A stretch of 23,076 bases of DNA from a phage (GCA_025289735.1 GCA_025289735.1_4764.2); one strand, 5' to 3'; counted from the first letter of the stretch, positions 7,945-21,329 are shown. Notes: generated by a model from the letters alone, not told the origin. Made by a program: numbers and translations.

Positions 7945-7955
7945 CATTTTTAACA

Positions 7956-8716: not shown

Positions 8717-8731
8717 TAAGAGGCTTATATA

Positions 8732-9388
8732 ATGAAATTGATTGCACTTTGTGGTAAAAAGCGAGTAGGAAAAGACACTGCCGCGTTAATCATTGATGGA
8801 CATAGTTATCAACTGGCAGCACCGATCAAAGAAATATTGTGCGAATGTCAACCAGACTTAGGTCTGACTTATCTTGACTTTGACGGGTTAGGGCGTGACA
8901 GAGAATCCGATCTAGGTATTGATACCTATACCGCGCATAAGTGGTTTATTCAGTGTCTGCTTATGCTAGATTCGAAGTATGGCGGTAGTTCCTTTACTTG
9001 TGATCGTCTGGCTGAGATTTACAAGGTCGTTAATGAGATTGGCGAAAAACATAATAACGTCTGGTCTATTCGTCTCATGTTAACCACTCTCGGTACTGAT
9101 ATAATGGTTAACTTGATCAATCCGCTTTATTGGTGTAATCTCTTCGTTAATGAGTTTATGAAGCGCAAAAATGAAGAAGGTTATTTTGTAGTGGTTGATG
9201 TGCGTCAGCCTATTGAAATTGCTCTCGTGCGTGCTATGGGTGCTAAGGTGTTGCATATTCAGCGTGATACTGGTATTGTATCGACTCACTCCACCGAAAA
9301 AGGAATTTTGCCTATTGACGGTGAAACAGTTATCATAAATAATGGCACATTAGAAGAATTTGAAAGCGCGATTCTCGCGAACATTTAA
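8732..9388 (+). CDS. 1: deoxynucleoside monophosphate kinase
   Basis: 218 aa; clear similarity to T4 gp1: MKLI.L.G.KR.GKDT, YQLA.PIK, DRE.DLG, WSIR.LM..LGTD..VN, ARAMGA.V.HI.R, THSTE.G.LPI.DG..VI.N.G.LEE. Confidence 0.9.
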   Translation: MKLIALCGKKRVGKDTAALIIDGHSYQLAAPIKEILCECQPDLGLTYLDFDGLGRDRESDLGIDTYTAHKWFIQCLLMLDSKYGGSSFTCDRLAEIYKVVNEIGEKHNNVWSIRLMLTTLGTDIMVNLINPLYWCNLFVNEFMKRKNEEGYFVVVDVRQPIEIALVRAMGAKVLHIQRDTGIVSTHSTEKGILPIDGETVIINNGTLEEFESAILANI

Positions 9389-9414
9389 TAAAAAGTTATC
9401 AACAAGTAGGAGAT

Positions 9415-9681
9415 GTGAATATGTCCAATCAACATGAACAAATGATTAATGTCCTGAAAGTACGTCTGTTTGACACTCAAGAAAAGGCCGCATTCTTAGA
9501 AGGCCAACTGAAAGATCGTGAGCGTGTATTGATGGAACTGGTACGCATTCTGGGTATTCAGCCAGACGAAAACGGGACTGTTTCCCTTGATGCTATCGTC
9601 GAAGAAGTGAAAGCACTTCTCCCTAAAGACGAAGCCGCAGAAGCCGCAGAAGAGGAAGTAGAACTGATCACGGAGGCTTGA
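9415..9681 (+). CDS. 57A: gp57A-like tail fiber assembly chaperone (small acidic coiled-coil protein)
   Basis: 88 aa, acidic, heptad-like, between gene 1 and the 57B-like gene; size and neighbourhood match T4 57A. Sequence-level match not verified. Confidence 0.5.
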   Translation: MNMSNQHEQMINVLKVRLFDTQEKAAFLEGQLKDRERVLMELVRILGIQPDENGTVSLDAIVEEVKALLPKDEAAEAAEEEVELITEA

Positions 9682-9683
9682 TT

Positions 9684-10148
9684 ATGACCCCGTTTAGAGA
9701 ATCCGTTAAAGGTACATATGCGGCGGTTAAATTCACTGAGGATACACTAGACCGCATTGAAAAATTGCAGGAGTTCTACGATCTTCCTAATGCCGTTCCT
9801 CGTGATAAACTGCATAGCACTATCTTATATTCTCGTGTCTATGTTCCGTTTATCCCAGAAGAAGGGGAGAAGTTCTTAGGCTCTCTGTGTCATCTGAAAG
9901 TGTTTGAAACACAATCCGGTACTAATGCGCTTGTGCTGGCATTTGAAAGCGACTACATGCAATTCAGACACGATATCGGCACTGCTTTAGGTGCGACGTG
10001 GGATTATCCTGAATATGTACCGCATATCACGCTTTCTTATGATGTTGGTGCGCGTAAATTTGGCACTGACCTAGAGTTCGATTTAGAGATTGTCCGATCT
10101 CATGAGTATGTCGAAGATCTAGACCTGGAGTGGACGACCAAACTGTAA
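9684..10148 (+). CDS. acb1: 2H phosphoesterase, 57B/Acb1-like (anti-CBASS cyclic-oligonucleotide phosphodiesterase candidate)
   Basis: 154 aa from ATG at 9684 (the track start 9678 is TTG; GGAGG RBS 7 nt upstream of 9684). Two H-x-T-x motifs (HSTILY, HITLSY) typical of 2H phosphoesterases; T4 57B/Acb1 is about 152 aa and adjacent to 57A and gene 1. Confidence 0.65.
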   Translation: MTPFRESVKGTYAAVKFTEDTLDRIEKLQEFYDLPNAVPRDKLHSTILYSRVYVPFIPEEGEKFLGSLCHLKVFETQSGTNALVLAFESDYMQFRHDIGTALGATWDYPEYVPHITLSYDVGARKFGTDLEFDLEIVRSHEYVEDLDLEWTTKL

Positions 10149-10155
10149 TTCTATA

Positions 10156-10187
10156 CCCCGAAAAATTTTTCGGGGTTTTTTGTTTTT
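10156..10187 (+). terminator. rho-independent terminator
   Basis: CCCCGAAAAATTTTTCGGGG palindrome followed by TTTTTTGTTTTT. Confidence 0.8.
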
Positions 10188-10192
10188 AGGTG

Positions 10193-10221
10193 TTGACAAC
10201 CATAAACGACTATAGCATAAT
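10193..10221 (+). promoter_or_regulatory. early sigma70-type promoter module copy 1 (TTGACA-17-CATAAT)
   Basis: TTGACA at 10193-10198, CATAAT at 10216-10221, then leader ATCGAAACGAAACAC and AGGAG RBS before the ATG at 10260. Confidence 0.7.
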
Positions 10222-10259
10222 GCACATATCGAAACGAAACACACTTAGGAGAATCAAAA

Positions 10260-10634
10260 ATGATGATGTTTAAAGATAAATTCGAATGTCACTACACCCG
10301 TAACTTTGACTTAGTATCCCGCTACTACATTCATAAAGAAACTGGCACGCAAGTAGTTCTTGAATCTCACAGCGAAGTAGGATTCGATTCAACAAAAGTA
10401 GCAATTAGTGCTCGCTTCTGGGATAACGGCAAATTTGCTTATATCGCTTGGAACGACGACGAAAATGTAATTACAGTAGCTTTCGGTGATGACTACTACA
10501 CTAAAAAGACTTTTGATAGCAAGCCATCAAATGAATATCTGAAAGCGTATGTTCAGCACATGTTCCAACGTGTTCTGACCGGAATGGAAATCAATGTCAT
10601 GAAAGACATTGTAGACGAAGTAAAATATTCTTAA
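10260..10634 (+). CDS. hypothetical protein (124 aa)
   Basis: ORF with promoter and RBS directly upstream; no recognised homolog. Confidence 0.7.
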   Translation: MMMFKDKFECHYTRNFDLVSRYYIHKETGTQVVLESHSEVGFDSTKVAISARFWDNGKFAYIAWNDDENVITVAFGDDYYTKKTFDSKPSNEYLKAYVQHMFQRVLTGMEINVMKDIVDEVKYS

Positions 10635-10640
10635 AAATAG

Positions 10641-10669
10641 TTGACAACATGAAACGGGGGTAGTAAGAT
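10641..10669 (+). promoter_or_regulatory. early promoter module copy 2 (TTGACA-17-TAAGAT) with inverted repeat over the -10
   Basis: TTGACA 10641-10646; GGGGGTA (10656-10662) / TACCCCC (10669-10675) inverted repeat flanks the -10; leader CAAACGAAAGGAG. Near-identical to the module at 19448. Confidence 0.65.
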
Positions 10670-10700
10670 ACCCCCACAAACAAACGAAAGGAGAATCAAA

Positions 10701-10859
10701 ATGAAATTTATCGGTAAAACTTTTATGTTCGTAGCTGGTACTCTGTTTACTGCAACTCTGTTAGCTGGTGGCTTAGATATCTTTACTGCCTTTGAAACTT
10801 TCGGGTATACTGTAGCATCGGGTGCTCTCTTCGGATTGGGTTTAGCGATTAGCAAATAA
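10701..10859 (+). CDS. small hydrophobic membrane peptide (52 aa)
   Basis: ATG 7 nt after AGGAG, immediately behind promoter copy 2; translation MKFIGKTFMFVAGTLFTATLLAGGLDIFTAFETFGYTVASGALFGLGLAISK. Below the 60-aa cutoff of the ORF track. Confidence 0.6.
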   Translation: MKFIGKTFMFVAGTLFTATLLAGGLDIFTAFETFGYTVASGALFGLGLAISK

Positions 10860-10868
10860 GGTGATAAT

Positions 10869-11072
10869 ATGGAATTTGATATGGTTAAAGCAAAATTTAT
10901 GGGTAAGGATAAGAGCGGTAAAACATTTGTTATTAATAGAACATTGTTTCGCTCTGACCTTAAGTGGGTAACACAACAATTTGCGGAAGTCAACGAGGCA
11001 GTTGTGACATGCTTCGTTGATGATAAAAAAGTTTTTGAAATTGATCGTCGTGGGGTGTCTAATGATCACTAA
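10869..11072 (+). CDS. hypothetical protein (67 aa)
   Basis: ORF with GGTGA RBS; first gene of a translationally coupled chain. Confidence 0.55.
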   Translation: MEFDMVKAKFMGKDKSGKTFVINRTLFRSDLKWVTQQFAEVNEAVVTCFVDDKKVFEIDRRGVSNDH

Positions 11073-11259
11073 ACTGTTTAGTAATACTTTGTTTCTGATT
11101 GCATTTGTTTTCTTTCTGTGTCTGATGATCGGTGTTGTTACAGTTGGTAGCTATTCCGGTATTACCTTAGATGATTTTTGCAAACTTGTTTTGATCTCGT
11201 TTATACCTAGTATTCTGCTCGCTTTATGTGGTGCTTTTAAATGGCTTTGTACGCTATGA
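11062..11259 (+). CDS. small membrane protein (65 aa)
   Basis: ATG at 11062 overlaps the upstream stop; hydrophobic, two predicted TM helices. The track start 11017 is probably too far upstream. Confidence 0.55.
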   Translation: MITKLFSNTLFLIAFVFFLCLMIGVVTVGSYSGITLDDFCKLVLISFIPSILLALCGAFKWLCTL

Positions 11260-11366
11260 ACGAAATAGAACGAATGATGTTGATAGGTGGACCGGAGTTC
11301 ACTAAATTTGATGCAATTCTTATTGCGTTGGGTTTTCTTATGATCTGTTGTATGGTGGCGCTATGA
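11256..11366 (+). CDS. possible micro-protein (36 aa, hydrophobic)
   Basis: ATG at 11256 overlaps the upstream stop (ATGA); its own stop overlaps the next ATG at 11363. Manual translation MNEIERMMLIGGPEFTKFDAILIALGFLMICCMVAL. Confidence 0.35.
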   Translation: MNEIERMMLIGGPEFTKFDAILIALGFLMICCMVAL

Positions 11367-11587
11367 GTAGCATAAAATATTTTGCTTTCTTGTGTTTTAT
11401 GATGTTCTTCACATTCTTAGCATGTGTTTTCTTTACCTGGCTTGCTCATGTTGATAATGCAACCGGACCGTTTTACTTCTTCTGTGTATTGTCTGTGTTG
11501 ACTGGTGCTCTTGTTACGTGGATGATTCGAGATTGTTACGGAATGTATAAGTTTGAAAAGACTCGACCGAAATGGGGCAAACGATGA
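11363..11587 (+). CDS. small membrane protein (74 aa)
   Basis: Hydrophobic ORF, ATG at 11363 (track start 11348 is TTG). Confidence 0.55.
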   Translation: MSSIKYFAFLCFMMFFTFLACVFFTWLAHVDNATGPFYFFCVLSVLTGALVTWMIRDCYGMYKFEKTRPKWGKR

Positions 11588-11766
11588 AATTATTTGCATG
11601 GCTAATTATTTTAAATGTAATTGTTAAGACCTTTCTCGCTGGTCTGATGATGGCGCATAGCACCGAACCAGAAGAAGCATTAACGTATTTTGTTGCTTAT
11701 GTGTTGGGATTCTTGCTTACTGCGTGGATGTGTGATGAATATCGAAGAATTGAGGTAAAACCATGA
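11584..11766 (+). CDS. small membrane protein (60 aa)
   Basis: ATG at 11584 overlapping the upstream stop (ATGA); hydrophobic. Confidence 0.5.
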   Translation: MKLFAWLIILNVIVKTFLAGLMMAHSTEPEEALTYFVAYVLGFLLTAWMCDEYRRIEVKP

Positions 11767-11981
11767 AAATGACTTTTTATATCTTAGCAAGTATCATGCT
11801 TGTGATCTCTTCTGCCTTATTTGCATTTCTTACCGTTTGGGGGATCTGTACTGATGCGAAGCCGTGGGATATCGTAGAAAATACGGTTATGTTTATTATT
11901 AGTGTCATGTGTCTTTTTGATGCATTTAACTCTATCAAGGAAGAAGATCAAAAACGTCGCGAGAGAAAGCGATATAAATAA
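11763..11981 (+). CDS. small membrane protein (72 aa) with basic C-terminal tail
   Basis: Start overlaps the upstream stop; two hydrophobic segments then KEEDQKRRERKRYK. Confidence 0.55.
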   Translation: MKMTFYILASIMLVISSALFAFLTVWGICTDAKPWDIVENTVMFIISVMCLFDAFNSIKEEDQKRRERKRYK

Positions 11982-12132
11982 TAGTGAACTAAAGACAGCG
12001 CGGTTAGAATGATTTGGACGTCACCTAGCCGCATTTATTACAGCGTATGTGGGCTATCCGGTACGCTAAAGCATTCACTTGCTAGGCCGCTAGCAGGTTG
12101 GAGACAAGGAAGATTCGCTACCTTCCCTATAA

Positions 12133-12156
12133 GCCACTCTTCGGAGTGGCTTTTTT
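12133..12156 (+). terminator. rho-independent terminator (UUCG tetraloop)
   Basis: GCCACTC-TTCG-GAGTGGC followed by TTTTTT. Confidence 0.8.
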
Positions 12157-12184
12157 ATTGCCTAAAATTTTTTTAAAAAAGTTG

Positions 12185-12213
12185 TTGACACCAGATCCGG
12201 CCTATAGCATAAT
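12185..12213 (+). promoter_or_regulatory. early promoter module copy 3 (TTGACA-17-CATAAT)
   Basis: TTGACA 12185-12190, CATAAT 12208-12213, preceded by an A/T tract (12161-12180), followed by leader ATCGAAACGAAACACAC. Confidence 0.7.
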
Positions 12214-12259
12214 ACACCCATCGAAACGAAACACACTTTCTTAAACGGAGAATCAAATT

Positions 12260-12445
12260 ATGGCACGTCGCATCACTAAAGCACTGAAAGCAGTAAGCAA
12301 AGAAAACGTAGTAGCTATTCTGGTAATCTGGGGTTATAACGAAGAATCCGCTAAACAGAAAGTTGAAGCAGGGTTTGAACTGGCAGTAAAAGCAATGCCT
12401 AATGATGACTCTGTAGGACTGGCAAACTATATTGCATATTTCTGA
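12260..12445 (+). CDS. hypothetical protein (61 aa)
   Basis: ORF behind promoter copy 3 with GGAGAA RBS. Confidence 0.6.
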   Translation: MARRITKALKAVSKENVVAILVIWGYNEESAKQKVEAGFELAVKAMPNDDSVGLANYIAYF

Positions 12446-12453
12446 TAAAAGTG

Positions 12454-12482
12454 TTGACAGGGGAGGATAACTCCCCTACAAT
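12454..12482 (+). promoter_or_regulatory. early promoter module copy 4 (TTGACA-17-TACAAT) with spacer palindrome
   Basis: TTGACA 12454-12459, TACAAT 12477-12482; GGGGAG/CTCCCC inverted repeat (12460-12476) in the spacer; leader ATCAACGAAACGGGAGG. Confidence 0.65.
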
Positions 12483-12511
12483 ACAACCATCAACGAAACG
12501 GGAGGACCAAA

Positions 12512-12733
12512 ATGATTAACTTTAAAGACGCAGCAAAAGAAATTATCGACTTTGAGCGTGAACTGTTTGAGATGGAACCAAATATGAGTAAACTGGAATT
12601 GGCTAACCAGATCTGGTGCTCTAAGATGAATCCATCCGACCGCTTAGAAGTTATGAACATCGTAGGCGAAGTGAAAGGTAGTGCATTAATGAAACTCCGC
12701 GCTTGTCACGCTTACATCGCTGATCAACTATAA
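12512..12733 (+). CDS. hypothetical protein (73 aa)
   Basis: ORF behind promoter copy 4. Confidence 0.6.
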   Translation: MINFKDAAKEIIDFERELFEMEPNMSKLELANQIWCSKMNPSDRLEVMNIVGEVKGSALMKLRACHAYIADQL

Positions 12734-12742
12734 GGGGGTAAT

Positions 12743-12937
12743 ATGGGGGATAAACCATTAGTACAACTAAGAGTACGCTATAACCAGATTTTAGCATTAC
12801 TTAAAGCTGAGGGTGTAGACCCATCGGACCGCGAGGCTGTAAAAGCGTGTCTATCTGATACGGTACAACCAAAACATAACTATGCTTGTTATATGTACTT
12901 TTACAATAGGATGAATAGACCGTTTGAGTTTGAATAA
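12743..12937 (+). CDS. hypothetical protein (64 aa)
   Basis: ORF with AAGGGGG RBS. Confidence 0.55.
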   Translation: MGDKPLVQLRVRYNQILALLKAEGVDPSDREAVKACLSDTVQPKHNYACYMYFYNRMNRPFEFE

Positions 12938-12959
12938 CGTTAAGTGTTGAGGTGATACT

Positions 12960-13148
12960 ATGGAAGACCAAATTGAACAATTACGCGAATCCGCTAAAGA
13001 GCATGGTATGAGCGAAGGATTTGTTGAATGGTTTATCTCTAAAAAGGTTGATTCCTGCGGGTGCTTTAACTTCCTTACTATGTCCATTATGTGGGAAGGT
13101 TGGAAAGGTGCTGTAGAAACTGCCTTAAAAATTTTGAAAAAAGACTAA
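12960..13148 (+). CDS. hypothetical protein (62 aa)
   Basis: ORF with GAGGTGA RBS. Confidence 0.5.
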   Translation: MEDQIEQLRESAKEHGMSEGFVEWFISKKVDSCGCFNFLTMSIMWEGWKGAVETALKILKKD

Positions 13149-13156
13149 AAAAGTTG

Positions 13157-13185
13157 TTGACACGCGATAGGGTGTATAGCATAAT
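13157..13185 (+). promoter_or_regulatory. early promoter module copy 5 (TTGACA-17-CATAAT) inside an 11-bp perfect inverted repeat
   Basis: TTGACA 13157-13162, CATAAT 13180-13185; GATAGGGTGTA (13166-13176) and TACACCCTATC (13186-13196) form a perfect inverted repeat around the -10; leader CGAAACGAAACACGAA and AAGGAG RBS. Confidence 0.7.
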
Positions 13186-13228
13186 ACACCCTATCGAAAC
13201 GAAACACGAACTACTAAGGAGTATCAAA

Positions 13229-13555
13229 ATGAAACCAGTATCTGTTAAAGTTATCTTCTCTGAATCTTCTGTATTCGCTAAAGCAAACGAAGTATTCCAC
13301 TTCGAAGACTTCGAGCGTAAAGCACAGGACGCGGCAGCAAAAGCCTATGAAAGCGAATATGACAAAACTCAAATCGAGGTTACTTTCGAAAACGGCACTA
13401 CTTACGCTTGCCGCCTTGACCTGGGTGATCGTCTGTCTGGCTTCCGTCACCATGTAGAGAAGACAATCGCTTTCTCTAAAACCGAAAAAGGAAAACACTA
13501 CTTTTCTGTTTTCGGTACTAAAAATCTGGATTTCTTGAAAACTGTTTCTTTCTAA
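13229..13555 (+). CDS. hypothetical protein (108 aa)
   Basis: ATG at 13229 sits 8 nt after AAGGAG, behind promoter copy 5. The track entry 13091..13555 has an over-extended N-terminus that would cross the promoter. Confidence 0.65.
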   Translation: MKPVSVKVIFSESSVFAKANEVFHFEDFERKAQDAAAKAYESEYDKTQIEVTFENGTTYACRLDLGDRLSGFRHHVEKTIAFSKTEKGKHYFSVFGTKNLDFLKTVSF

Positions 13556-13563
13556 GGTATATT

Positions 13564-13746
13564 ATGAAAAAGATTAATTGGTTAGCGAACATAGGCGCGG
13601 TCTGCGCCTTTAACATCCTCGGATGGATAATGTTACATTTTGATGAGCGAGTTTCAAAATGTGAGGGTGCATTGATTCTCGGATCTGCTAGCATATTCAT
13701 TATGCTGTATGCAATTGCTGTTGACTTAAGCCGCGAGGATTGTTAA
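13564..13746 (+). CDS. small membrane protein (60 aa)
   Basis: Two hydrophobic segments. Confidence 0.5.
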   Translation: MKKINWLANIGAVCAFNILGWIMLHFDERVSKCEGALILGSASIFIMLYAIAVDLSREDC

Positions 13747-13747
13747 T

Positions 13748-13942
13748 ATGAATATTACTAATACTGCCATCGGATTTTCGAGCGCCTTTGCTAGTTTCTT
13801 TGCGCTGGTCTGTATGTTTGTTTTTATTCCTGTTGTATATCTTGGATATTGTGATATTGAAATTGCATTGATTGCTGGGATCTATATGTGGGTTGCGGTC
13901 TTTGTTCTTTCTGTTATAATGTGCAAGATTATTGACCATTGA
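13748..13942 (+). CDS. small membrane protein (64 aa)
   Basis: Strongly hydrophobic, two predicted TM helices. Confidence 0.5.
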   Translation: MNITNTAIGFSSAFASFFALVCMFVFIPVVYLGYCDIEIALIAGIYMWVAVFVLSVIMCKIIDH

Positions 13943-13964
13943 TTAACTATGTGAGGATTATATT

Positions 13965-14285
13965 ATGAGCAAACTGTTTGAAACTCCGCGTGAAATTCTG
14001 ATTGACAAGCTGAAAGAACGTGGTTTTAAAATCAAAGATGCAACCAAATATAGTCGAATTGATGAAATTAAGTTGCATTCTCTTGATGAACTGGTAGAAT
14101 ATGTTGCGGCGGTGGCTGATCCGCAGTTTGATGTGATTGTAGGTGACGTTGAATATCTCGATAATGTATATTCATTCTTCACTTATGGTAAAATTGTGTC
14201 TGTGAAAATATCATTCTGTGAAAATGTGGAGGTGCTTGCTAGTGAACCAGAAAAACCAACTGACAACGGTCCTACGGCAGCGTAA
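13965..14285 (+). CDS. hypothetical protein (106 aa)
   Basis: ORF with GAGGA RBS. Confidence 0.55.
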   Translation: MSKLFETPREILIDKLKERGFKIKDATKYSRIDEIKLHSLDELVEYVAAVADPQFDVIVGDVEYLDNVYSFFTYGKIVSVKISFCENVEVLASEPEKPTDNGPTAA

Positions 14286-14556
14286 CAAGGAAGACCGTCT
14301 GATTTATGCGCTGGCGGTTATCCTTGAAAAAGAATTACCGGATCTTGATGTAGTTTTTACTGACCGACCAGTAGGCCAACGTTACGGAGGATATGACAGC
14401 CTAGTTTATCCATCATATAGCATTGAAATGTGGGTAGAAGATTTTAAAAACTTGGCTGATACATCTAAACCGCTTTATTTGTGGGATGTTGAGTATAATT
14501 GCGATCCTAACTGGCCTGGCATTAATGTTTATGCGTCTATGACTTTAAAGGTGTGA
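14224..14556 (+). CDS. hypothetical protein (about 105-110 aa)
   Basis: Overlaps the end of the preceding ORF in another frame. Start uncertain: ATG 14224 or GTG 14242 (GGAGG RBS at 14229-14233). Confidence 0.5.
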   Translation: MWRCLLVNQKNQLTTVLRQRNKEDRLIYALAVILEKELPDLDVVFTDRPVGQRYGGYDSLVYPSYSIEMWVEDFKNLADTSKPLYLWDVEYNCDPNWPGINVYASMTLKV

Positions 14557-14558
14557 TA

Positions 14559-14717
14559 ATGGTTGAACAAATGTTAACTTCAATGGTAATGGCTTTCTGT
14601 GTGGGTGTTGTTCTGTTTGCGATGATTCCAAAAGACCGAATGAATCTGCTTGTTGCTGTGTGTTTGGGTGTGGTTAGCGGTTGGTGTGGAATCGTTCTAG
14701 AACACGCTCTGCGATGA
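14559..14717 (+). CDS. small membrane peptide (52 aa)
   Basis: ATG at 14559 just after the upstream stop; manual translation MVEQMLTSMVMAFCVGVVLFAMIPKDRMNLLVAVCLGVVSGWCGIVLEHALR. Confidence 0.45.
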   Translation: MVEQMLTSMVMAFCVGVVLFAMIPKDRMNLLVAVCLGVVSGWCGIVLEHALR

Positions 14718-14725
14718 TTAACAAT

Positions 14726-14750
14726 GCGGGTAGGGTAATGTACTACCCGC
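14726..14750 (+). other. stable stem-loop (GCGGGTAG / CTACCCGC), no T-run
   Basis: 8-bp perfect stem with 9-nt loop between the small ORFs and the membrane-protein/endolysin cluster. Confidence 0.5.
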
Positions 14751-14778
14751 ACTAAATTAGCTCACTGGAGGGCTTTCT

Positions 14779-14967
14779 ATGGCGTTTTGTCTATGGTTGC
14801 TTATAGTATGCTTTGTAATTGGTTTATGCTTCTATACTGGCGTATTCTGTTTTGTCGCCTGGATAGACGGCGGATTCTCTAATATCATTTTGCTTGCAGG
14901 ATCAATTGCCTCGTTTCTGTTTATTTGGCTATTTTCATATTTGATTGGTGAATGGGATTTATTATGA
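14779..14967 (+). CDS. small membrane protein (62 aa)
   Basis: GGAGGG RBS; two hydrophobic helices. Confidence 0.55.
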   Translation: MAFCLWLLIVCFVIGLCFYTGVFCFVAWIDGGFSNIILLAGSIASFLFIWLFSYLIGEWDLL

Positions 14968-15143
14968 ACAAATATATGTTTTGGGCGACCATTGCCTATG
15001 TTGTGATTGCGGTAGTATGGGGATTCTGTGTTATTGTCGCTTCTCTGATCTGGTGGGAATCACTTGGTGCGGGTTGTCTGATTAGCGGCGCATCATGTCT
15101 TATCACTGGCGTGATTGTTGGTTTTCTTGTGTCGGAGGCTTGA
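14964..15143 (+). CDS. small membrane protein (59 aa)
   Basis: ATG 14964 overlaps the upstream stop; hydrophobic. Confidence 0.5.
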   Translation: MNKYMFWATIAYVVIAVVWGFCVIVASLIWWESLGAGCLISGASCLITGVIVGFLVSEA

Positions 15144-15145
15144 CA

Positions 15146-15361
15146 ATGGTTTTCTTCGGTCTTATTATAATGGTGCTTAATGTCATTTGTGGCGTTGCTA
15201 TGTTAGCTATGGCCTTTACTGTTCCTATGTCTGTTGATAGCGCCGCATCCGTAGGTGTGTTGGGAATTGTAAACCTGTTTACCGCCCTAGCATGTTGGAT
15301 CACCGGACGCGATGAGGTAATGTATTACTTTTATAAACGTAAACAGAGAAAAGGAAAATAA
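15146..15361 (+). CDS. small membrane protein (71 aa) with basic C-terminus
   Basis: ATG 15146 with GGAGG RBS at 15134-15138; two TM segments then KRKQRKGK. Confidence 0.5.
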   Translation: MVFFGLIIMVLNVICGVAMLAMAFTVPMSVDSAASVGVLGIVNLFTALACWITGRDEVMYYFYKRKQRKGK

Positions 15362-15362
15362 T

Positions 15363-15554
15363 ATGAAATTTGCATTTGGTTTTACCGTGATGTTGATTAT
15401 TGCTCTGAGTATGTGTACCGGAATGCTTGTATTTGGTCTTGCAAACGGATTTAGCATTTATAATAATCAGTGGGTTGATTGGGGAATGGTTGTCGTTAAT
15501 GCGATCCTGATTGGTGCTAATACAAGAAATCTATGCAGGATCGCCGGAATCTAA
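15363..15554 (+). CDS. small membrane protein (63 aa)
   Basis: Hydrophobic ORF directly upstream of the endolysin gene. Confidence 0.5.
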   Translation: MKFAFGFTVMLIIALSMCTGMLVFGLANGFSIYNNQWVDWGMVVVNAILIGANTRNLCRIAGI

Positions 15555-15582
15555 ATATTATCACTCACAAAGGGGGTGAATA

Positions 15583-15972
15583 ATGTTTAAATTATCTCAA
15601 AGAAGCAAAGATCGGCTTGTTGGTGTACATCCTGATCTGGTAAAAGTCGTTCATCGTGCGTTAGAACTGACTCCGGTCGATTTTGGTATTACGGAAGGTG
15701 TGCGTAGTCTAGAAACGCAAAAGAAATATGTTGCGGAAGGTAAATCTAAGACTATGAAATCTCGTCATCTTCACGGTTTCGCGGTTGACGTTGTAGCGTA
15801 TCCGAAAGATAAGGATACATGGAACATGAAATACTACCGCATGATCGCGGATGCATTTAAACAAGCTGGTCGAGAATTGGGTGTTCCTGTTATCTGCGGT
15901 GTTGATTGGGTTACTTTTAAAGACGGACCGCATATGGAACTCGATAAAAAGGTATATCCAGACCCGGTATAA
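15583..15972 (+). CDS. endolysin, L-alanyl-D-glutamate peptidase (peptidase M15, T5-type)
   Basis: 129 aa; similar to T5 endolysin as recalled (VHPDL.KVV.RALELTPVDFGI.EGVR; SRHLHGFAVDV with H-x6-D zinc site; DGPHMEL). Occupies the position of T4 gene e but belongs to a different enzyme family. Confidence 0.8.
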   Translation: MFKLSQRSKDRLVGVHPDLVKVVHRALELTPVDFGITEGVRSLETQKKYVAEGKSKTMKSRHLHGFAVDVVAYPKDKDTWNMKYYRMIADAFKQAGRELGVPVICGVDWVTFKDGPHMELDKKVYPDPV

Positions 15973-15981
15973 CTAAAATCA

Positions 15982-16006
15982 AGCCAGCTTAATCGCTGGC
16001 TTTGTG
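15982..16006 (+). terminator. probable terminator hairpin after the endolysin gene
   Basis: AGCCAGC-TTAAT-CGCTGGCT followed by TTGTG; weak T-run. Confidence 0.45.
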
Positions 16007-16017
16007 AGGATTATAAA

Positions 16018-16593
16018 ATGGCTTTTAAATATTGGGATGAATCCCTACAAAACGAGATAAAACTTAGATATGCTCATATAGAGGGTATCTTATATTATAG
16101 AGTCGATAGTAAAGCTATCAAAGGACGACCATTAGGGAGTAGATATAAACACGGCGATTTAGTTAAAGTCAGAACAAATAAAGATGGTCATCTTAGATTT
16201 TGGCATAGTAGAGATGACGGTCTTCCTAGAGTTCATCTATTCGTGCATAGGGTTGTTTGGTTTCTAGAACATGGGACGCAAGTTAGATTAATTGATCATA
16301 TTGACGGTAATCCTGCGAATAACAATCCTCCAAATCTTAGGGAGGCAACCGACGCGCAAAATCAACATAATAGAAAGAAGAAGTCTAAAAAGTTTTCTAG
16401 TGTGTATAAGGGTGTTAGTAAGTCTAACAGGAAGGATTTGCGTAAGAAATGGAGAGCTAGTATAATGGTCAACCTAAAAAGACATGTTCTTGGACAATAT
16501 GACACAGAAATCGAAGCTGCAATCGCTTATGATAATGCAGCTAGGAAATTTTATGGAGAATATGCTCTATTGAATTTCCCAGATCCAAAATAA
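16018..16593 (+). CDS. HNH homing endonuclease with C-terminal AP2 DNA-binding domain
   Basis: HNH core HRVVWFLEHGTQVRLIDHIDGNPANNNPPNLREATDAQNQHN; AP2-like YKGVS...WRASI...GQYDTEIEAAIAYDNAARKFYG. AGA/AGG/ATA-rich codon usage contrasts with neighbouring genes. Confidence 0.8.
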   Translation: MAFKYWDESLQNEIKLRYAHIEGILYYRVDSKAIKGRPLGSRYKHGDLVKVRTNKDGHLRFWHSRDDGLPRVHLFVHRVVWFLEHGTQVRLIDHIDGNPANNNPPNLREATDAQNQHNRKKKSKKFSSVYKGVSKSNRKDLRKKWRASIMVNLKRHVLGQYDTEIEAAIAYDNAARKFYGEYALLNFPDPK

Positions 16594-16655
16594 AATATTA
16601 ACCATCAACGGGGAGACAATCTAAGGATCTCTCCCCGTTCACTGGAGACTTTACC

Positions 16656-17147
16656 ATGAATATTGACATTGATTTAGAATTAGAAAGTAAAGATTTGATT
16701 TATGCTGCGTGTGTATCTGCCGTAAATGGCATCATAGAACGCCGTAAGCGACGCAATTTTGCTGATGACCTAGATTCCATTGTCTCAATCAATTTAGGCC
16801 GTCAGACAGGGCATACAGACGCTACAATCAAGTTATATGACCATTATACGCGAAAGGGCTATAGTGTCTTTATCGTTTCAACGACGCGGGAACATGCCAA
16901 AACGATCCGAGATCGCGGTCGCGGTGAAAATGTAAATATTTCAAATGTAGATTGTACGTCTATCCGAACTTTCCTGAATCCGATCACATGGCGAGGTCGT
17001 AGTCTTGACAAAACAATTTTTATCCTAGATACTACCATGCGCGGATTTACTGACAGCGTATTGCAGTTTTTAGAAGTAAATCGACTTAGTGTTGGGATGG
17101 GTAATGTAGAAGACCAACCTATTTTCATTGGCTTAGGTATTAACTAA
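16656..17147 (+). CDS. hypothetical protein (163 aa)
   Basis: ORF with GGAG RBS; no recognised homolog. Confidence 0.6.
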   Translation: MNIDIDLELESKDLIYAACVSAVNGIIERRKRRNFADDLDSIVSINLGRQTGHTDATIKLYDHYTRKGYSVFIVSTTREHAKTIRDRGRGENVNISNVDCTSIRTFLNPITWRGRSLDKTIFILDTTMRGFTDSVLQFLEVNRLSVGMGNVEDQPIFIGLGIN

Positions 17148-17272
17148 TGAAAAATAAAGATAGCGTAGCTCGTCGATTTCGTGCTACAATTAAAAAGAAT
17201 CGTAAAATCCAACCTGATAAACTCTATGGTGTTTTGGTTGGTAAAATTAATGACGAACGTCCTGATCTATAA
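17147..17272 (+). CDS. possible small basic protein (41 aa)
   Basis: ATG overlaps the upstream stop (TAATG); translation MKNKDSVARRFRATIKKNRKIQPDKLYGVLVGKINDERPDL. Not in the ORF track (below 60 aa). Confidence 0.35.
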   Translation: MKNKDSVARRFRATIKKNRKIQPDKLYGVLVGKINDERPDL

Positions 17273-17282
17273 GAGGTGAATT

Positions 17283-17699
17283 ATGGAATTTAAAGCAATT
17301 CAAATCATGAAAGGTGAGCATAAAGGTACTATTATTGGTGGACACTTCGCGCCTATGATTCTGGTATCCGAACCGAAAGCACTGATCGGCGCTAAAGTAA
17401 TTGTTAGTAAAACTTTCGCAGAAGACCATGTGATCACCGCAGAAGACGTCGATTCGCTGGCACTGCACACAACTAGCTTCCGTCCGGTGATTGTAGATAA
17501 TGGTGCTCCTGTTGTCGAAGGAGGTCAGCACGCGAATATCAATGTGATGAGTCGCGATCTTCTTCTTGATGCGGTTGCTAATCCTGATAAGTATCCGCAA
17601 CTAACCATTCGCGTTAGCGGATATGCCGTAAGATTCAATAGTCTGACTCCAGACCAACAACGTGATGTTATTTCGCGCACCTTTACGGAAGCAATGTAA
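17283..17699 (+). CDS. grcA: autonomous glycyl radical cofactor (GrcA/YfiD-like)
   Basis: 138 aa; C-terminal [60 protein letters not shown] is near-identical to E. coli GrcA and contains the RVSGY glycyl-radical motif. AAGAGGTGA RBS. Confidence 0.85.
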
Positions 17700-17705
17700 A
17701 TTTTT

Positions 17706-17738
17706 AAGCCAATCCGAAAGGGTTGGCTTTATTTTTAT
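17706..17738 (+). terminator. rho-independent terminator after the grcA-like gene
   Basis: AGCCAATCC-GAAA-GGGTTGGCT followed by TTATTTTTAT. Confidence 0.75.
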
Positions 17739-17746
17739 GAGGTGAT

Positions 17747-18277
17747 ATGATGATTAAAAGATATTGTGATGACCATCCGGTCGAAGAGTGGAAAGTGATT
17801 GAGGATCTTTATCCGTTAACTCATTTTGAGATTAGTTCTCATGGTAGGGTTAGAAACTCCATAACAGGAAAATACTTGTCTATTGTAGACACGAAAGATT
17901 ATACTAAAGTTTCTTTTAAACATCGCCCCAGCAAAACACATAGAACGTTAAACATGCATAGAATGATGGCGGTTGCGTTTATTCCGAATCCAAACAACTA
18001 CCGTGTAGTTAACCATAAGGACGGAAACAAACGAAACTATGATCTTTATAATCTTGAATGGACTACAGACACACGAAATCTTGTTCATGCAAAGGAAGAA
18101 GGATTAAACAAAAATTGGGGCGAGAACCACGGAAACGCAAAACTAACAGATGAACAGGTGAAAGAGATTTTAGATTCTCCGCATATGAAGGGCGTAGAGC
18201 TTGCAAGAAAATATAATGTTTCACCGTCTGCTATTTGTCAGATTCGAAAAGGCGTTCGACGTAACGTAAAATACTAA
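17747..18277 (+). CDS. HNH homing endonuclease (NUMOD4-like N-terminus, HNH_3 core, C-terminal HTH)
   Basis: HFEISSHGRVRN (NUMOD4-like); HRMMAVAFIPNP..VNHKDGNKRNYDLYNLEW (HNH); NAKLTDEQVKEI...ARKYNVSPSAICQIRKG (DNA-binding). Confidence 0.8.
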   Translation: MMIKRYCDDHPVEEWKVIEDLYPLTHFEISSHGRVRNSITGKYLSIVDTKDYTKVSFKHRPSKTHRTLNMHRMMAVAFIPNPNNYRVVNHKDGNKRNYDLYNLEWTTDTRNLVHAKEEGLNKNWGENHGNAKLTDEQVKEILDSPHMKGVELARKYNVSPSAICQIRKGVRRNVKY

Positions 18278-18290
18278 TGAGGGTTTAATT

Positions 18291-18989
18291 ATGCATACAA
18301 TGGTTAAAATGGTCTTCGGATCTCACTTGTACGGCCTTGATACTGAAAATTCAGATAAAGATTATCGTGGTATCTTTGTTCCGACTGCTAAAGAAATTAT
18401 CTTAGGATCGATGAAAGAACACTATGACCAAAGCACTAGCGGTCAAGGTATCAAGAACACCAAAGACGATATTGATGTTAATATGTTCAGTCTAAAACGG
18501 TTTATCAATCTGGCATGTAAAGGCGATATCGGCGCTATTGACATGGTGCACGCGCCTAGTAACATGTTGATTGAATCCTCCAGAGAATGGGAATACATCC
18601 GAACACATCGCGATAAATTCTATCATGTTGGGATGTGGGGTTTGTCTGGCTATCTCAAAAAGCAGGTAGCCAAATCTGAAAAGTATTTCAGTAACTGGAA
18701 AGATCTTTCTCATGCTCTGCGTGTTGGTTATCAGCTACTTGAAATCTATCAGACAGGTGATCTACAATTCCCGCTCGCGCGACGTTCTTCTATTTTAGCG
18801 TGTAAGTTAGGAGAAAGAACCTTTGATAATGTGCGGGAAGAATTGAAAGATCTCTACGAGCGTGTTAAACTCGCGCGTGAAGAGGCAAAGAAAAACGGTA
18901 TGCCGGAAGAACCAGATGTTGACTTTTGGAAAGATTTATTAGAATATATTCATCTGACCGTTGTTCTGGAACACTATACCCGTGGTTAG
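18291..18989 (+). CDS. Pol-beta superfamily nucleotidyltransferase (RlaP/YcgL-like), function unknown
   Basis: 232 aa; N-terminal VFGSHLYGLDTENSDKDYRGIF fits the hG[GS]-x(9-13)-DxD nucleotidyltransferase signature. Confidence 0.6.
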   Translation: MHTMVKMVFGSHLYGLDTENSDKDYRGIFVPTAKEIILGSMKEHYDQSTSGQGIKNTKDDIDVNMFSLKRFINLACKGDIGAIDMVHAPSNMLIESSREWEYIRTHRDKFYHVGMWGLSGYLKKQVAKSEKYFSNWKDLSHALRVGYQLLEIYQTGDLQFPLARRSSILACKLGERTFDNVREELKDLYERVKLAREEAKKNGMPEEPDVDFWKDLLEYIHLTVVLEHYTRG

Positions 18990-19010
18990 TTAATATAGGA
19001 GATTAAGAAA

Positions 19011-19205
19011 ATGAAAGTTTATACCAATAGCAATAAAGGACAAGATATTACGCCAGGAAAGATGTATGATTTTACCCCGACACGAGACTACGAAAATCCA
19101 CCGACAATCGGTTACATCAAAGATGATATAGGTTATCGTATTACGATCCTTCTTGATGGTGGATGTTCTCATCTTCGCGGTGATAAATGGGAGTTAGTAC
19201 CATGA
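19011..19205 (+). CDS. small protein, paralog family member A (64 aa)
   Basis: Shares Y.(F/Y)TP...GYI.DD.G..I.I.L...C.HL.G..W.L with the next two ORFs. Confidence 0.6.
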   Translation: MKVYTNSNKGQDITPGKMYDFTPTRDYENPPTIGYIKDDIGYRITILLDGGCSHLRGDKWELVP

Positions 19206-19447
19206 TGTATGTGATGACACCTTATAGTAACCGCAAGTATATTACACCAAATACACTGTATGAATATACACCACATGAAAGATTTTCGAATAGTGGTTAT
19301 ATCCGTGATGATAAGGGACACCAGATTTTTATTTGTCTTAAAAATTGTGCACACTTAGACGGTCGAACCTGGACACTGATCGAAGAACCAAAACAACCTG
19401 AGAATAAAGGTCTTTGGAATGTGCTAAAAAAATTCTTGAAAAAGTAG
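19202..19447 (+). CDS. small protein, paralog family member B (81 aa)
   Basis: ATG 19202 overlapping the upstream stop; motif ITPNTLYEYTP...GYIRDDKGHQIFICLKNCAHLDGRTW. Confidence 0.6.
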   Translation: MMYVMTPYSNRKYITPNTLYEYTPHERFSNSGYIRDDKGHQIFICLKNCAHLDGRTWTLIEEPKQPENKGLWNVLKKFLKK

Positions 19448-19476
19448 TTGACAGCATGAAACGGGGGTAGTAATAT
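19448..19476 (+). promoter_or_regulatory. early promoter module copy 6 (TTGACA-17-TAATAT) with inverted repeat over the -10
   Basis: TTGACA 19448-19453; GGGGGTA/TACCCCC inverted repeat (19463-19482); leader ATCGAAACAACAAAGGAG. Near-identical to copy 2. Confidence 0.65.
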
Positions 19477-19507
19477 ACCCCCATCGAAACAACAAAGGAG
19501 TATTAAA

Positions 19508-19843
19508 ATGAGTGTTAAAGAAGTGTTTGTTTATACCGACTATGACGGGTGCGCCTATCTCACTGCTGGAAAACTTTACCGTTGTGAGATTATTCATGGT
19601 ACGCTAGGTCGAATTATGTGCGATCCTATTACAAAATTGTGGAAAAATAATCCTAGTGAGCGAGAAACTCTTATTAACCTAGATCCAGACGGTTGTTCAC
19701 ACTTGGGCTATAGAAAATGGCATATAGTTACACATGATGCTTATGGTATTCATCTTGCTACTAAAGAATTAACTATTGACAAGTTCAAGTTTAAAGAAAT
19801 CCCGTTTGTATACTGGCTTCGCAATTTGTTTAAGAAAGGATAA
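19508..19843 (+). CDS. small protein, paralog family member C (111 aa)
   Basis: Contains DPDGCSHLGYRKWHIV, matching the C.HL.G..W motif of the two upstream paralogs, with an extended C-terminus. Confidence 0.6.
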   Translation: MSVKEVFVYTDYDGCAYLTAGKLYRCEIIHGTLGRIMCDPITKLWKNNPSERETLINLDPDGCSHLGYRKWHIVTHDAYGIHLATKELTIDKFKFKEIPFVYWLRNLFKKG

Positions 19844-19847
19844 TAAA

Positions 19848-20270
19848 ATGGAAACAATTAACGTACATGTTCGCCGTAGTAAGCTGCGTAGATTCTTCGA
19901 AACCGAAATGCGCAAAACCAATGCGCAGATCAAAGAAAAGTGTTTGAATGATGGTTATGGTGAGTATATTTTCATTCGCTTTAGTCCGCATATGATCGAC
20001 CGTCTAACCGATCGTCATATCGATGAACATAAGACAATGGAACTATTCAATAAGATAGAAACTCGTTTGCCAGAGATCTTCGACTTCCTGAAAATGGAAG
20101 ACCGACCGAATCGATTAGAAATTACTGACGGTAACATGTGGATCGGGATGACAGTAGATCTAATCGAAGAGGGTAAGCCATATCACGGTCTATGCTGCCG
20201 AATGATTATAGAGAATCCAAAACGACTGGCGGGTAAAATGTCGGCGGTTGTTTTGAAGGTAGACCAATAA
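19848..20270 (+). CDS. regB: RegB sequence-specific endoribonuclease
   Basis: 140 aa from ATG 19848 (the track start 19776 is over-extended). Similar to T4 RegB as recalled: V.IRR.KLRR.FE.E.R..N..I.E, RLEITDGN.W.G.TV, CRM.I.N..RL.GK.S..V.K. Confidence 0.8.
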   Translation: METINVHVRRSKLRRFFETEMRKTNAQIKEKCLNDGYGEYIFIRFSPHMIDRLTDRHIDEHKTMELFNKIETRLPEIFDFLKMEDRPNRLEITDGNMWIGMTVDLIEEGKPYHGLCCRMIIENPKRLAGKMSAVVLKVDQ

Positions 20271-20293
20271 TGGAAATTGGTTAAAAATAATGC

Positions 20294-20322
20294 TTGACTT
20301 TCTGGTGATAGGGCTATATTAT
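20294..20322 (+). promoter_or_regulatory. sigma70-like promoter (TTGACT-17-TATTAT)
   Basis: TTGACT 20294-20299, TATTAT 20317-20322, upstream of the signal-peptide lytic transglycosylase gene. An overlapping TGCTTGA resembles a MotA box but its spacing is off. Confidence 0.45.
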
Positions 20323-20356
20323 GGAATCAGAAAGTTAAGCCAAACAGGAGAAATTA

Positions 20357-20947
20357 ATGTTAAAAGTTCTAAAAGCGATAGTATTGAGTCTGTCACTAGC
20401 CGTTGGTGCTACACACGCATCGACTAGCGCACCGATCAAAAAAGCGCCGATAGACAACTTTACAGCACACCAACTAGATAATTTACATTTCGCCTATCAA
20501 TACGGCGAGCAATTCGAGAAAAGCGGTAAGTTGAAAAAGTACCATCCGAATATTCGCTATAACGGAAAGGGTTTAGGTCACATCCTGGCGGGTATCGCAT
20601 GGCAAGAATCAAGCGCGGGTGCAAACTTAGCACCAAAGAAAAATCATCATGCTTATGGATTATTTCAAAATTACCTTAAAACGGTGAAAGCGAAAAATGC
20701 AAAGCGCGGTGTTAAAATGAGTGATCGCCAGACTATCAACTTTATCATGAATCGCGAGGTTTCTGCATTCTACGCGATGGATGAGTTAGCATACTGGCTG
20801 GATGTTCGAAACGGTAATATCCGACTCGCGCTAGCTTCTTACAATGCTGGATGGAACTATAAAGCCGGGTTAGGCTATGCTGATGACGTACTAAAAAAGG
20901 CTAACCATCTAAAGAGTAAAGGCATTCTTAAGACTAAACGCTATTGA
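20357..20947 (+). CDS. secreted lytic transglycosylase (SLT domain) with Sec signal peptide
   Basis: N-terminal MLKVLKAIVLSLSLAVGATHA-ST signal peptide; SLT motifs AGIAWQESS (catalytic E-S), YGLFQ and ASYNAG. Confidence 0.75.
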   Translation: MLKVLKAIVLSLSLAVGATHASTSAPIKKAPIDNFTAHQLDNLHFAYQYGEQFEKSGKLKKYHPNIRYNGKGLGHILAGIAWQESSAGANLAPKKNHHAYGLFQNYLKTVKAKNAKRGVKMSDRQTINFIMNREVSAFYAMDELAYWLDVRNGNIRLALASYNAGWNYKAGLGYADDVLKKANHLKSKGILKTKRY

Positions 20948-20954
20948 GGAATAT

Positions 20955-21314
20955 ATGAAAAAGTTGACAATAATTGCTATGATTGCTATGATGTTCTCGG
21001 CTGGTGCGCTTGCTAGTAATGAGCGCCCTTATCCAAAGTTTGAATACAAAGGATTTGAGATCAACAAAAAGATCATTAAAACTTTCTGTGATGATGATAA
21101 CATGTGTAGTGATTTTATCGCGCTCGAACTTGATGAAGCATACAAACAAGGTCGAGACGAAAAACGAAAAAATCGAGCGTGGGATCTGAGTATTGCCAGC
21201 TTTGCTAAAACAAAACGCAACCTTTGTGATACTGCCCCTGATAAGCAATTATGCTTTGCTTATCGCGACACACTGTTAAGCCGTTTTATGGCTGGGTTGT
21301 CTTCCCGTGACTAA
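20955..21314 (+). CDS. periplasmic protein with signal peptide (119 aa), unknown function
   Basis: MKKLTIIAMIAMMFSAGALA-SN signal peptide; four Cys in the mature part; directly downstream of the SLT gene. Confidence 0.6.
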   Translation: MKKLTIIAMIAMMFSAGALASNERPYPKFEYKGFEINKKIIKTFCDDDNMCSDFIALELDEAYKQGRDEKRKNRAWDLSIASFAKTKRNLCDTAPDKQLCFAYRDTLLSRFMAGLSSRD

Positions 21315-21329
21315 TGAGAGGTTTATATT

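Follow-up and report, generated by a model that had tools for sequence, protein, structure and literature searches.

Six promoter-early stem-loop cassettes recognised by sequence in the early-gene region of a Krischvirus

Genomic setting and anatomy of the cassettes

The stretch of phage DNA analysed here (GCA_025289735.1_4764.2; 23,076 nucleotides, referred to below as the window) belongs, as judged from its sequence, to Krischvirus, the RB49/JSE/phi1 group of T4-type coliphages: 61 Krischvirus records match it, and its identity with phage JSE is 97.3% across positions 10000-20000. Six copies of an early-promoter repeat, with TTGACA at 10193, 10641, 12185, 12454, 13157 and 19448, all on the plus strand, are by their sequence features promoter-early stem-loop (PeSL) cassettes. 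The stretch carrying copies 1-5 shows 99.2% identity to phage G2494. The cassettes occupy the early-gene region, from 57B to regB/vs/tk, where all genes of the window lie on the plus strand, and each stands ahead of a small open reading frame (ORF). The ORFs downstream of the six cassettes are annotated in JSE and RB49, and every record lists their products as hypothetical proteins. The GenBank record of phage GEC-3S marks promoters, complete with -35 and -10 signals, at the orthologous sites of copies 1-5, as well as the terminators upstream of cassettes 1 and 3. The relatives compared below are represented by the orthologous region taken from 17 GenBank phage records, giving 18 genomes with the window; IMG/VR, scanned with the proteins encoded after copies 4 and 6, yielded a single contig and added no diversity.

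All six modules listed in the initial annotation were found: TTGACA is followed after exactly 17 nt by a -10 element (CATAAT, TAAGAT, CATAAT, TACAAT, CATAAT and TAATAT in copies 1 to 6), an A/C-rich leader, a GGAG ribosome-binding site and the ATG that opens an ORF. Every -10 element has A at its second and T at its sixth position, the promoters match the consensus at 10-11 of 12 positions, and the sequence upstream of the -35 element is A-rich (AAAAAGTT/AAAATA). The upstream genes' stop codons end 6-44 nt before TTGACA. To call the modules near-identical was too strong, since pairwise identity as given by a repeat finder is 63-92% over 37-83 nt. The leader thought to be common to all is likewise limited in its exact form (ATCGAAACGAAAC) to copies 1, 3 and 5, with variants in copy 6 (ATCGAAACAAC), copy 4 (ATCAACGAAAC) and copy 2 (ACAAACAAACGAAAG), and the invariant part of the ribosome-binding site, which is followed by an A-rich spacer, is GGAG and not AGGAG. 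A search of the whole window on both strands with the composite pattern TTGACA-N17-NANNNT-N12-42-GGAG-N4-10-ATG gave seven matches, of which six are the cassettes and the seventh is an intragenic site on the minus strand; the mean over 100 shuffles was 0.02. GTTGACA occurs 12 times in the window, compared with 3.8 expected.

Cassette 1 (10193-10262) has its -35 element at 10193-10198, its -10 element at 10216-10221, a predicted transcription start at A10228 in ATCGAAACGAAAC, GGAG at 10248-10251 and ATG at 10260. The corresponding positions are 10641-10646, 10664-10669, A10676, 10690-10693 and 10701 in cassette 2 (10641-10703); 12185-12190, 12208-12213, A12220 (also in ATCGAAACGAAAC), 12249-12252 and 12260 in cassette 3 (12185-12262); 12454-12459, 12477-12482, A12489, 12501-12504 and 12512 in cassette 4 (12454-12514); 13157-13162, 13180-13185, A13193, 13217-13220 and 13229 in cassette 5 (13157-13231); and 19448-19453, 19471-19476, A19483 (in ATCGAAAC), 19497-19500 and 19508 in cassette 6 (19448-19510).

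A further good match to an early promoter, TTGACT-17-TATTAT, lies on the plus strand at 20294-20322, upstream of vs.1 (ATG 20357), and is kept in the complete genome of the relative OZ035808 (128534). It has neither the leader of the family nor a hairpin or terminator.

Stem-loops within and upstream of the promoters

The stem-loops are placed over the -10 element (copies 2, 5 and 6), in the spacer (copy 4), or upstream of the -35 element as terminators (copies 1 and 3). The inverted repeats initially annotated around the -10 element of copies 2 and 6 are present as 7-bp hairpins with a folding energy of -14 kcal/mol (z-scores -3.9 and -3.0, respectively). In copy 2, GGGGGTA (10656-10662) pairs with TACCCCC (10669-10675) across a loop (10663-10668) that contains most of the -10 element, and in copy 6 the same arms (19463-19469 and 19476-19482) enclose a loop at 19470-19475. 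The palindrome described for the spacer of copy 4 was also recovered: A-GGGGAG (12459-12465), loop GATAA (12466-12470) and CTCCCC-T (12471-12477) form a 7-bp hairpin (-14 kcal/mol, z -2.9) that exactly fills the 17-nt spacer. The inverted repeat around the -10 element of copy 5 is perfect, as had been noted, and measures 13 bp, not 11: CGATAGGGTGTAT (13165-13177) and ATACACCCTATCG (13184-13196), separated by the loop AGCATA (13178-13183), fold at -21.2 kcal/mol (z -7.6).

Folding of copies 1 and 3 showed their promoters to be free of palindromes (z -0.75 and +0.95), and neither carries an internal hairpin. Both are preceded by an intrinsic terminator on the plus strand, at 10155-10182 for cassette 1 (hairpin ACCCCGAAAAATTTTTCGGGGT at 10155-10176, then a T-run; annotated as a terminator in G2248, G5211 and GEC-3S) and at 12131-12158 for cassette 3 (hairpin AAGCCACTCTTCGGAGTGGCTT at 12131-12152, then a T-run). 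Canonical terminators have at least 5 T in the 7 nt after the stem, and only these two hairpins, upstream of copies 1 and 3, are Rho-independent terminators by definition. An antisense terminator at copy 2, where a scan flagged the minus strand with the GAAAC 5' flank reading as a T-rich tail, was discarded: the tail is weak, being interrupted and having 5 T of 8, the genes are all on the plus strand, and it is this flank of the spacer that is hypervariable.

Conservation of the stems

All six cassettes are found at the same positions in every genome sampled. Across 13-18 genomes, 2 of 58 columns in the stem arms are variable, versus 27 of 86 in the rest of the spacer and discriminator (Fisher p = 1.5e-5); for the -35 and -10 elements the counts are 0 of 35 and 1 of 31. 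The stem arms are thus as conserved as the -35 and -10 elements, while the adjoining spacer bases vary. All columns of the 5' arms are invariant within an otherwise free spacer, and the contrast is strongest in copies 5 and 6, where the 6-9 nt on the 5' side of the stem exist in 4-6 versions and the G-rich 5' arm is constant. Conservation of the palindromes in related phages was one of the points on which the initial annotation had made its proposal depend; it is borne out for the stem cores, which are invariant in 13-18 genomes.

In the palindrome of copy 5 the 8-bp core, GGGTGTAT/ATACACCC, is common to all relatives, and the perfect 13-bp form is seen only in the window among the 18 genomes. 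Most relatives have the core plus GAGA...A-TC; in G2494 and OZ035808 a change to GATA yields a further 4 bp beyond the 8, separated from them by a bulged A; and in the window alone a single T inserted at 13192 pairs with the bulged A, completing the 13 bp and adding 1 nt between the -10 element and the start site. Such stepwise perfection resembles the expected outcome of palindrome-templated mutation.

Arm sequences at the same place also differ from one cassette to another, e.g. GGGGGTA/TACCCCC, GGGAGTA/TACTCCC, GGGTGTAT/ATACACCC, GGGGATAT/ATATCCCC and GCGGTTAT/ATGACCGC. At one stem pair of the largest hairpin family, G-C is found 6 times, A-U 5 times and G-U twice, with no unpaired case. 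The covariation score rests on this single co-varying pair of one hairpin family, and shuffles reach it in 8 of 500 cases; because the copies are paralogues, we regard it as supportive only.

Predicted transcription starts and ribosome-binding sites

Transcription most likely starts at the A located 7 nt past the -10 element (8 nt in copy 5), which is the A of ATCGAAAC. This assignment is suggested by the constant spacing, the distance from the -10 element to AT(C/A) being 6 nt in 19 of 22 cassettes of OZ035808, and by the enrichment of ATCGAAAC in that genome on the early strand (17 occurrences, with 2 on the other strand and about 3 expected). The T7 A1 transcript also begins with AUCGA. A preference for C at -3 to -1 is reported for early promoters of RB49, along with agreement between their consensus and mapped 5' ends (Nolan et al. 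2006, PMC1524935). Given the predicted starts, copies 2 and 6 have the last base of the hairpin's 3' arm at -1 and copy 5 has it at +4; in copy 4 it precedes the -10 element. The hairpin could therefore not form in the RNA of the cassette itself. The internal hairpins are located 12-21 nt past the stop codon of the upstream gene, a place that would suit a structure at the 3' end of the upstream transcript.

GGAG precedes 6 of 6 cassette-led genes, compared with 12 of the other 38 genes at the JSE locus (Fisher p = 0.003). According to the RB49 record, the regB product cuts GGAG in early mRNAs, and the invariant GGAG would fit targeting by the RegB endoribonuclease. The regB gene itself is encoded in the same window, at approximately 19848-20270.

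Hairpins and terminators across a complete genome

The complete genome OZ035808 was searched with a cassette pattern, a terminator being scored as a hairpin plus T-run within 110 nt upstream. This gave 49 candidate cassettes, a number close to the 51-52 PeSLs published per genome. An internal GC-rich hairpin is present in 24 and an upstream terminator in 10 of these; 15 have neither and none has both, an absence of overlap with a hypergeometric P of 4e-4. The window follows the same rule, with an internal hairpin in four cassettes, a terminator in two and never both. Such mutual exclusion with true terminators suggests that the internal hairpins may have the same role.

Relation to known PeSL elements

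PeSLs were defined in RB49 and phi1, mostly in hyperplastic regions, as units made up of a consensus sigma-70 promoter with AT-rich upstream sequence, a stem-loop that often includes a poly-G and then a poly-C run, and, for the next ORF, its ribosome-binding site and ATG (Arbiol et al. 2010, PMC2839356). Five subclasses were distinguished by the position of the stem-loop, which may lie upstream of the -35 element, over it, in the spacer, over the -10 element or downstream of the latter, the commonest having it between the -35 and -10 elements or overlapping the -10 element. Promoter and terminator activity was measured for other PeSLs than those discussed here with lacZ fusions: promoters were tested for PeSL193/192 and PeSL206/205, one PeSL reaching about 13,000 Miller units, and the stem-loop of PeSL211/210 cut read-through about as much as rrnB T1 (PMC2839356). 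Neighbouring PeSLs were also found to recombine into circular DNAs (mini-circles), with crossovers within the cassette (PMC2839356). The main text of that paper does not mention the present six by name.

The initial annotation had likened its modules to PeSLs, and rightly so as far as sequence can tell. The genus is the one in which PeSLs were defined, the region (57B to regB/vs/tk) is the same and nothing essential differs: each of the six has the upstream stop codon in an AT-rich stretch, a TTGACA-N17-TATAAT-like promoter, a G(n)-loop-C(n) stem-loop at a described position or a terminator in its stead, intergenic placement in a hyperplastic T4-type region, and a small ORF with its ribosome-binding site and ATG. 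What sets the window apart is that the six sites display no presence/absence polymorphism among the 17 relatives, and that the 13-bp palindrome is private to it. Since PeSLs have been described and partly tested in the RB49/phi1/JSE group, the repeats are a correct re-discovery of a known element and not a new one. As to the element itself, nothing is added for this phage genus to the publications of 2010 and 2014; the repeats do form a real regulatory family that is recognisable from sequence alone.

PeSLs have also been reported in the hyperplastic regions of T4/PST and KVP40/nt-1, where these promoter and stem-loop units are linked to gene swaps (Comeau et al. 2014, PMC4122927). They differ from the window cassettes in their -35 element (TTTACW or TTGYVH) and in their stems (AG(n)A-loop-TC(n)T and A3-4G3-loop-C3T3-4, respectively), the window cassettes being of the RB49 type, G(n)-loop-C(n). 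Rho-independent terminators resemble the internal hairpins in being GC-rich and lying 12-21 nt past the upstream stop codon; unlike them, the internal hairpins are without a U-tract and their 3' arm doubles as the promoter region from -6 to -1. Phage morons and integron cassettes, with which PeSLs have been compared (PMC2839356), likewise involve a small accessory gene moving with its own promoter and terminator. PeSLs differ in having no integrase and no attC-type site, exchange being thought to take place by homologous recombination on the cassette.

A model for cassette function and its alternatives

We consider it probable that each of the six PeSLs combines an early promoter, an insulating hairpin belonging to the upstream transcription unit, and homology for exchange. 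The cassette would act as a near-consensus sigma-70 early promoter (A/T-rich upstream sequence, GTTGACA, 17 nt, -10 element), whose own transcript would begin with an unstructured A/C-rich leader (AUCGAAACGAAAC...) followed by the GGAG ribosome-binding site. One stem-loop per cassette would mark where the upstream transcription unit ends. An ordinary terminator immediately ahead of the promoter would fill this role in copies 1 and 3, and in copies 2, 4, 5 and 6 it would fall to a GC-rich hairpin whose G-rich 5' arm comes from the spacer and whose 3' arm comes from the C-rich stretch following the -10 element. This hairpin would form only in RNA reading through from the upstream gene, where we infer that, even without a U-tract, it attenuates read-through, caps the upstream RNA at its 3' end, or does both. 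The shared sequence of about 100 bp would at the same time offer homology for phage recombination, which may homogenise the copies and at times delete, insert or swap the genes between them. An operator site, a recombination hot spot and an RNA stem-loop in transcripts starting upstream had been put forward as functions for the palindromes in the initial annotation; the last of these fits best.

Several observations weigh against this model. The internal hairpins lack a U-tract in the window and in OZ035808, with 0-3 T in the 9 nt past the stem (the sequences following the stems of copies 2, 4, 5 and 6 are ACAAACAAA, ACAATACAA, AAACGAAAC and ATCGAAACA, with 0-1 T), and by the usual rule would rank as weak among intrinsic terminators; one stem-loop only (PeSL211/210; PMC2839356) is covered by the published test of termination. 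The cassettes are paralogues, and the counts for mutual exclusion and for covariation are therefore not fully independent. The 3' arms overlap the C-rich -6 to -1 region that RB49 early promoters favour anyway, which leaves the conservation of the 5' arms as the only independent evidence from conservation. Non-Watson-Crick stem pairs comprise four G·T and no A·C, the direction that would be expected for pairing in sense-strand RNA, in small numbers that are not significant alone (one-sided p ~0.06). Lastly, the 17 relatives have no indel breakpoint at any of the six cassettes.

The hairpins might instead act in DNA, as single-stranded or cruciform structures that serve as points of breakage and exchange or as targets of a recombination protein, any effect in RNA being secondary. 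In PMC2839356 the stem-loops are reported to block sequencing on a single-stranded template unless betaine is added, one mini-circle crossover maps inside the loop, and a recombination protein binding GGGG...CCCC is speculated upon. To this can be added that the conversion tract of copy 6 described below covers the hairpin, and that the palindrome of copy 5 was perfected in two steps, the second placing a T opposite the bulged A, a signature of templated DNA mutation. We nevertheless hold such a primary role in DNA to be unlikely: G·T without A·C would be expected for sense-strand RNA rather than for DNA as a duplex or cruciform, the stems (7-8 bp, with loops of 5-6 nt) are short for cruciform extrusion, a role in recombination does not predict mutual exclusion with ordinary terminators, and the absence of indel breakpoints at the six sites speaks against this explanation as well. 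The same doubt about extrusion of short stems from duplex DNA applies to the idea that the hairpin tunes its own promoter, by exposing the -10 element in a non-template loop or by supercoiling-dependent opening, and so sets promoter strength or the timing of shut-off. Placement is indeed precise, with 4-5 of the 6 bases of the -10 element in the loop and the 3' arm ending at about -1 in copies 2, 5 and 6, with a hairpin exactly in the spacer of copy 4 whose closing pair consists of the final -35 base and the initial -10 base, and with repetition in about 20 cassettes per genome. Yet copies 1 and 3, without an internal hairpin, share the -10/leader module and are equally conserved, and the hairpin-or-terminator rule points to upstream transcription, so that tuning of the cassette's own promoter appears quite improbable.

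Palindromes over the -10 element or the spacer are the classical form of a repressor-operator site, and the G-run/C-run arms recur in most cassettes (PMC4122927), as would suit a dimeric phage or host regulator that switches off early promoters. The arms, however, contain no shared recognition sequence (GGGGGTA, GGGTGTAT, GGGGAG, GGGGATC and GCGGTTAT), the loops measure 3, 5 or 6 nt, classes differ in where the centre of symmetry lies, the arms co-vary in a manner that keeps pairing rather than bases, and about one third of the candidate cassettes are without any palindrome. Because arm sequences, loops and positions differ between cassettes in this way, the operator fits worst of the three functions initially put forward, and we rate it as very improbable. 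We give equally little credence to the notion that the palindromes have no function and arise by templated mutation and copy-to-copy conversion, being tolerated in spacers. The window-only 13-bp palindrome of copy 5, for which G2494, OZ035808, RB49 and the window form a stepwise series, and the demonstrable conversion between copies are what this notion would lead one to expect; against it stand 5' arms that are invariant beside hypervariable spacer bases, an architecture that recurs with unrelated arms and in other phage families too, and the genome-wide mutual exclusion with terminators.

PeSLs are of interest because they provide a concrete mechanism for the modular evolution of large virulent phages, as self-contained promoter/insulator units that double as recombination linkers. 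The question becomes how promoter-embedded hairpins without a U-tract stop or process upstream transcripts, and it is sharpened by three features: the hairpins would be excluded from the RNA of their own cassette, never accompany a true terminator, and tolerate G·U.

Recombination and mobility

The initial annotation had described the cassettes as mobile. No mobility of position is visible at the six sites, which are fixed in the 17 relatives, and the indel breakpoints relative to JSE, RB49, G2248 and JK32 fall elsewhere, at 13751/13949 (a gene replacement) and at 15933/16578 and 17752/18278 (homing-endonuclease genes). What remains of mobility is the exchange of short sequences, as sequence comparison makes short gene conversions between cassette copies visible. 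In the window and G2494 the spacer of copy 6 has 4-5 clustered changes relative to the other relatives and matches a paralogue at position 46116 of OZ035808 over about 42 nt, and conversion to the consensus leader has taken place in copy 2 of JEP8 and copy 4 of Whisky. Between copies 4 and 5 lies an allelic mosaic, with 60-77% nucleotide identity inside flanks of 95-100%; for the ORF at 12512-12733 two Krischvirus alleles exist, 17 records having at least 95% and 42 records 73-76% amino-acid identity. In a stretch of RB49 and G2248 beyond the end of the window, the gene-38 indel ends inside a PeSL, just past the -10 element.

Two endonuclease genes, at 16018-16593 and 17747-18277, are present in some close relatives and absent from others, and two of the region's three indel breakpoints are due to them. 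The former corresponds to an HNH endonuclease or AP2/ERF-domain protein in relatives, and the latter to a homing endonuclease in JSE. A terminator-like hairpin (17706-17729) precedes the second gene, and a stem-loop flagged on the minus strand only (15981-16002) precedes the first. In JK32 an apparent tandem duplication of approximately 266 bp corresponds to window positions 14629-14894 (JK32 14134-15079 and 15080-18191 align with 13949-14894 and 14629-17748, respectively).

The leader module in other phage families

A 47-nt probe covering the -10 element, leader and ribosome-binding site matched 472 phage records at E<=1. The leader CATCGAAACGAAAC, located 6 nt past the -10 element and often accompanied by a hairpin around or before it, also occurs in T1-like siphoviruses (Drexlerviridae) and in a Pseudotevenvirus. 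Sites were located in BECP10 (L008; 1440-1525 and 1985-2070), Samwise (L025; 1440-1545), ZL19 (L026; 1440-1540) and the RB43-like myovirus GuL6 (L027; 570-660, 1170-1260 and 1450-1545). In Drexlerviridae and GuL6 the module sits behind a different conserved motif, ATAGCACnnnTTGCTAAA, about 22 nt before the -10 element. The two ORFs after cassette 4 (12492-12942) have 82% nucleotide identity with Rogunavirus BECP10 (L008, 1501-1952), homology beginning in the leader, and a copy of the ORF at 12512-12733 in the 50-kb phage GaoY1-9D (84%) is nearer to the allele of the window. Text searches of the searchable literature with the leader and upstream motifs as strings found no relevant mention. It is tempting to speculate, and we do so only tentatively, that the 3' half of the cassette (-10 element, C-rich -6 to -1 region, leader CATCGAAACGAAAC, A-rich ribosome-binding region and often a hairpin around the -10 element) may serve as a linker across phage families. 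PeSL-type linkers would then mediate gene exchange between unrelated virulent coliphage families, beyond the T4-like phages, and confirmation of the leader shared with T1-like phages would widen the scope of the linker idea.

Non-coding stretch before cassette 3 and arrangement of the window

A conserved non-coding stretch of 177 nt (11982-12158, plus strand) extends from the stop codon of the previous ORF to cassette 3 and ends in the terminator. The predicted fold (-60.2 kcal/mol, z -3.1) has three hairpins in addition to a closing stem and the terminator, and variation among the 18 genomes is concentrated in one hairpin loop (approximately 12048-12056), with no compensatory changes found. 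Neither an RNA family nor a tRNA was detected with Rfam (gathering thresholds for the whole window, E-value mode for 11900-12260) and ARAGORN. The stretch is a candidate for a phage small RNA or an element of the 3' untranslated region.

The window joins two blocks, 1-8098 and 7991-23076, at a junction spanning 7991-8098. The first, with rnh-59-gene 34-gene 35, corresponds to JSE 144402-152500 on the plus strand, and the second, with genes 3, 1, 57A and 57B and the early ORFs, to approximately JSE 65560-50558 on the minus strand. JSE, OZ035808 and FL15 have the two blocks on opposite strands and at a great distance from each other (about 87 kb in JSE), and the arrangement of the window across the junction is found in no database record. 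Sequence comparison is compatible with either a real large inversion through a 108-bp repeat or a chimeric assembly. This repeat, through which the junction passes, is rich in hairpins (-24.4 kcal/mol) and normally stands before gene 36 and, in inverted orientation, before gene 3; OZ035808 contains two full and two partial copies of it.

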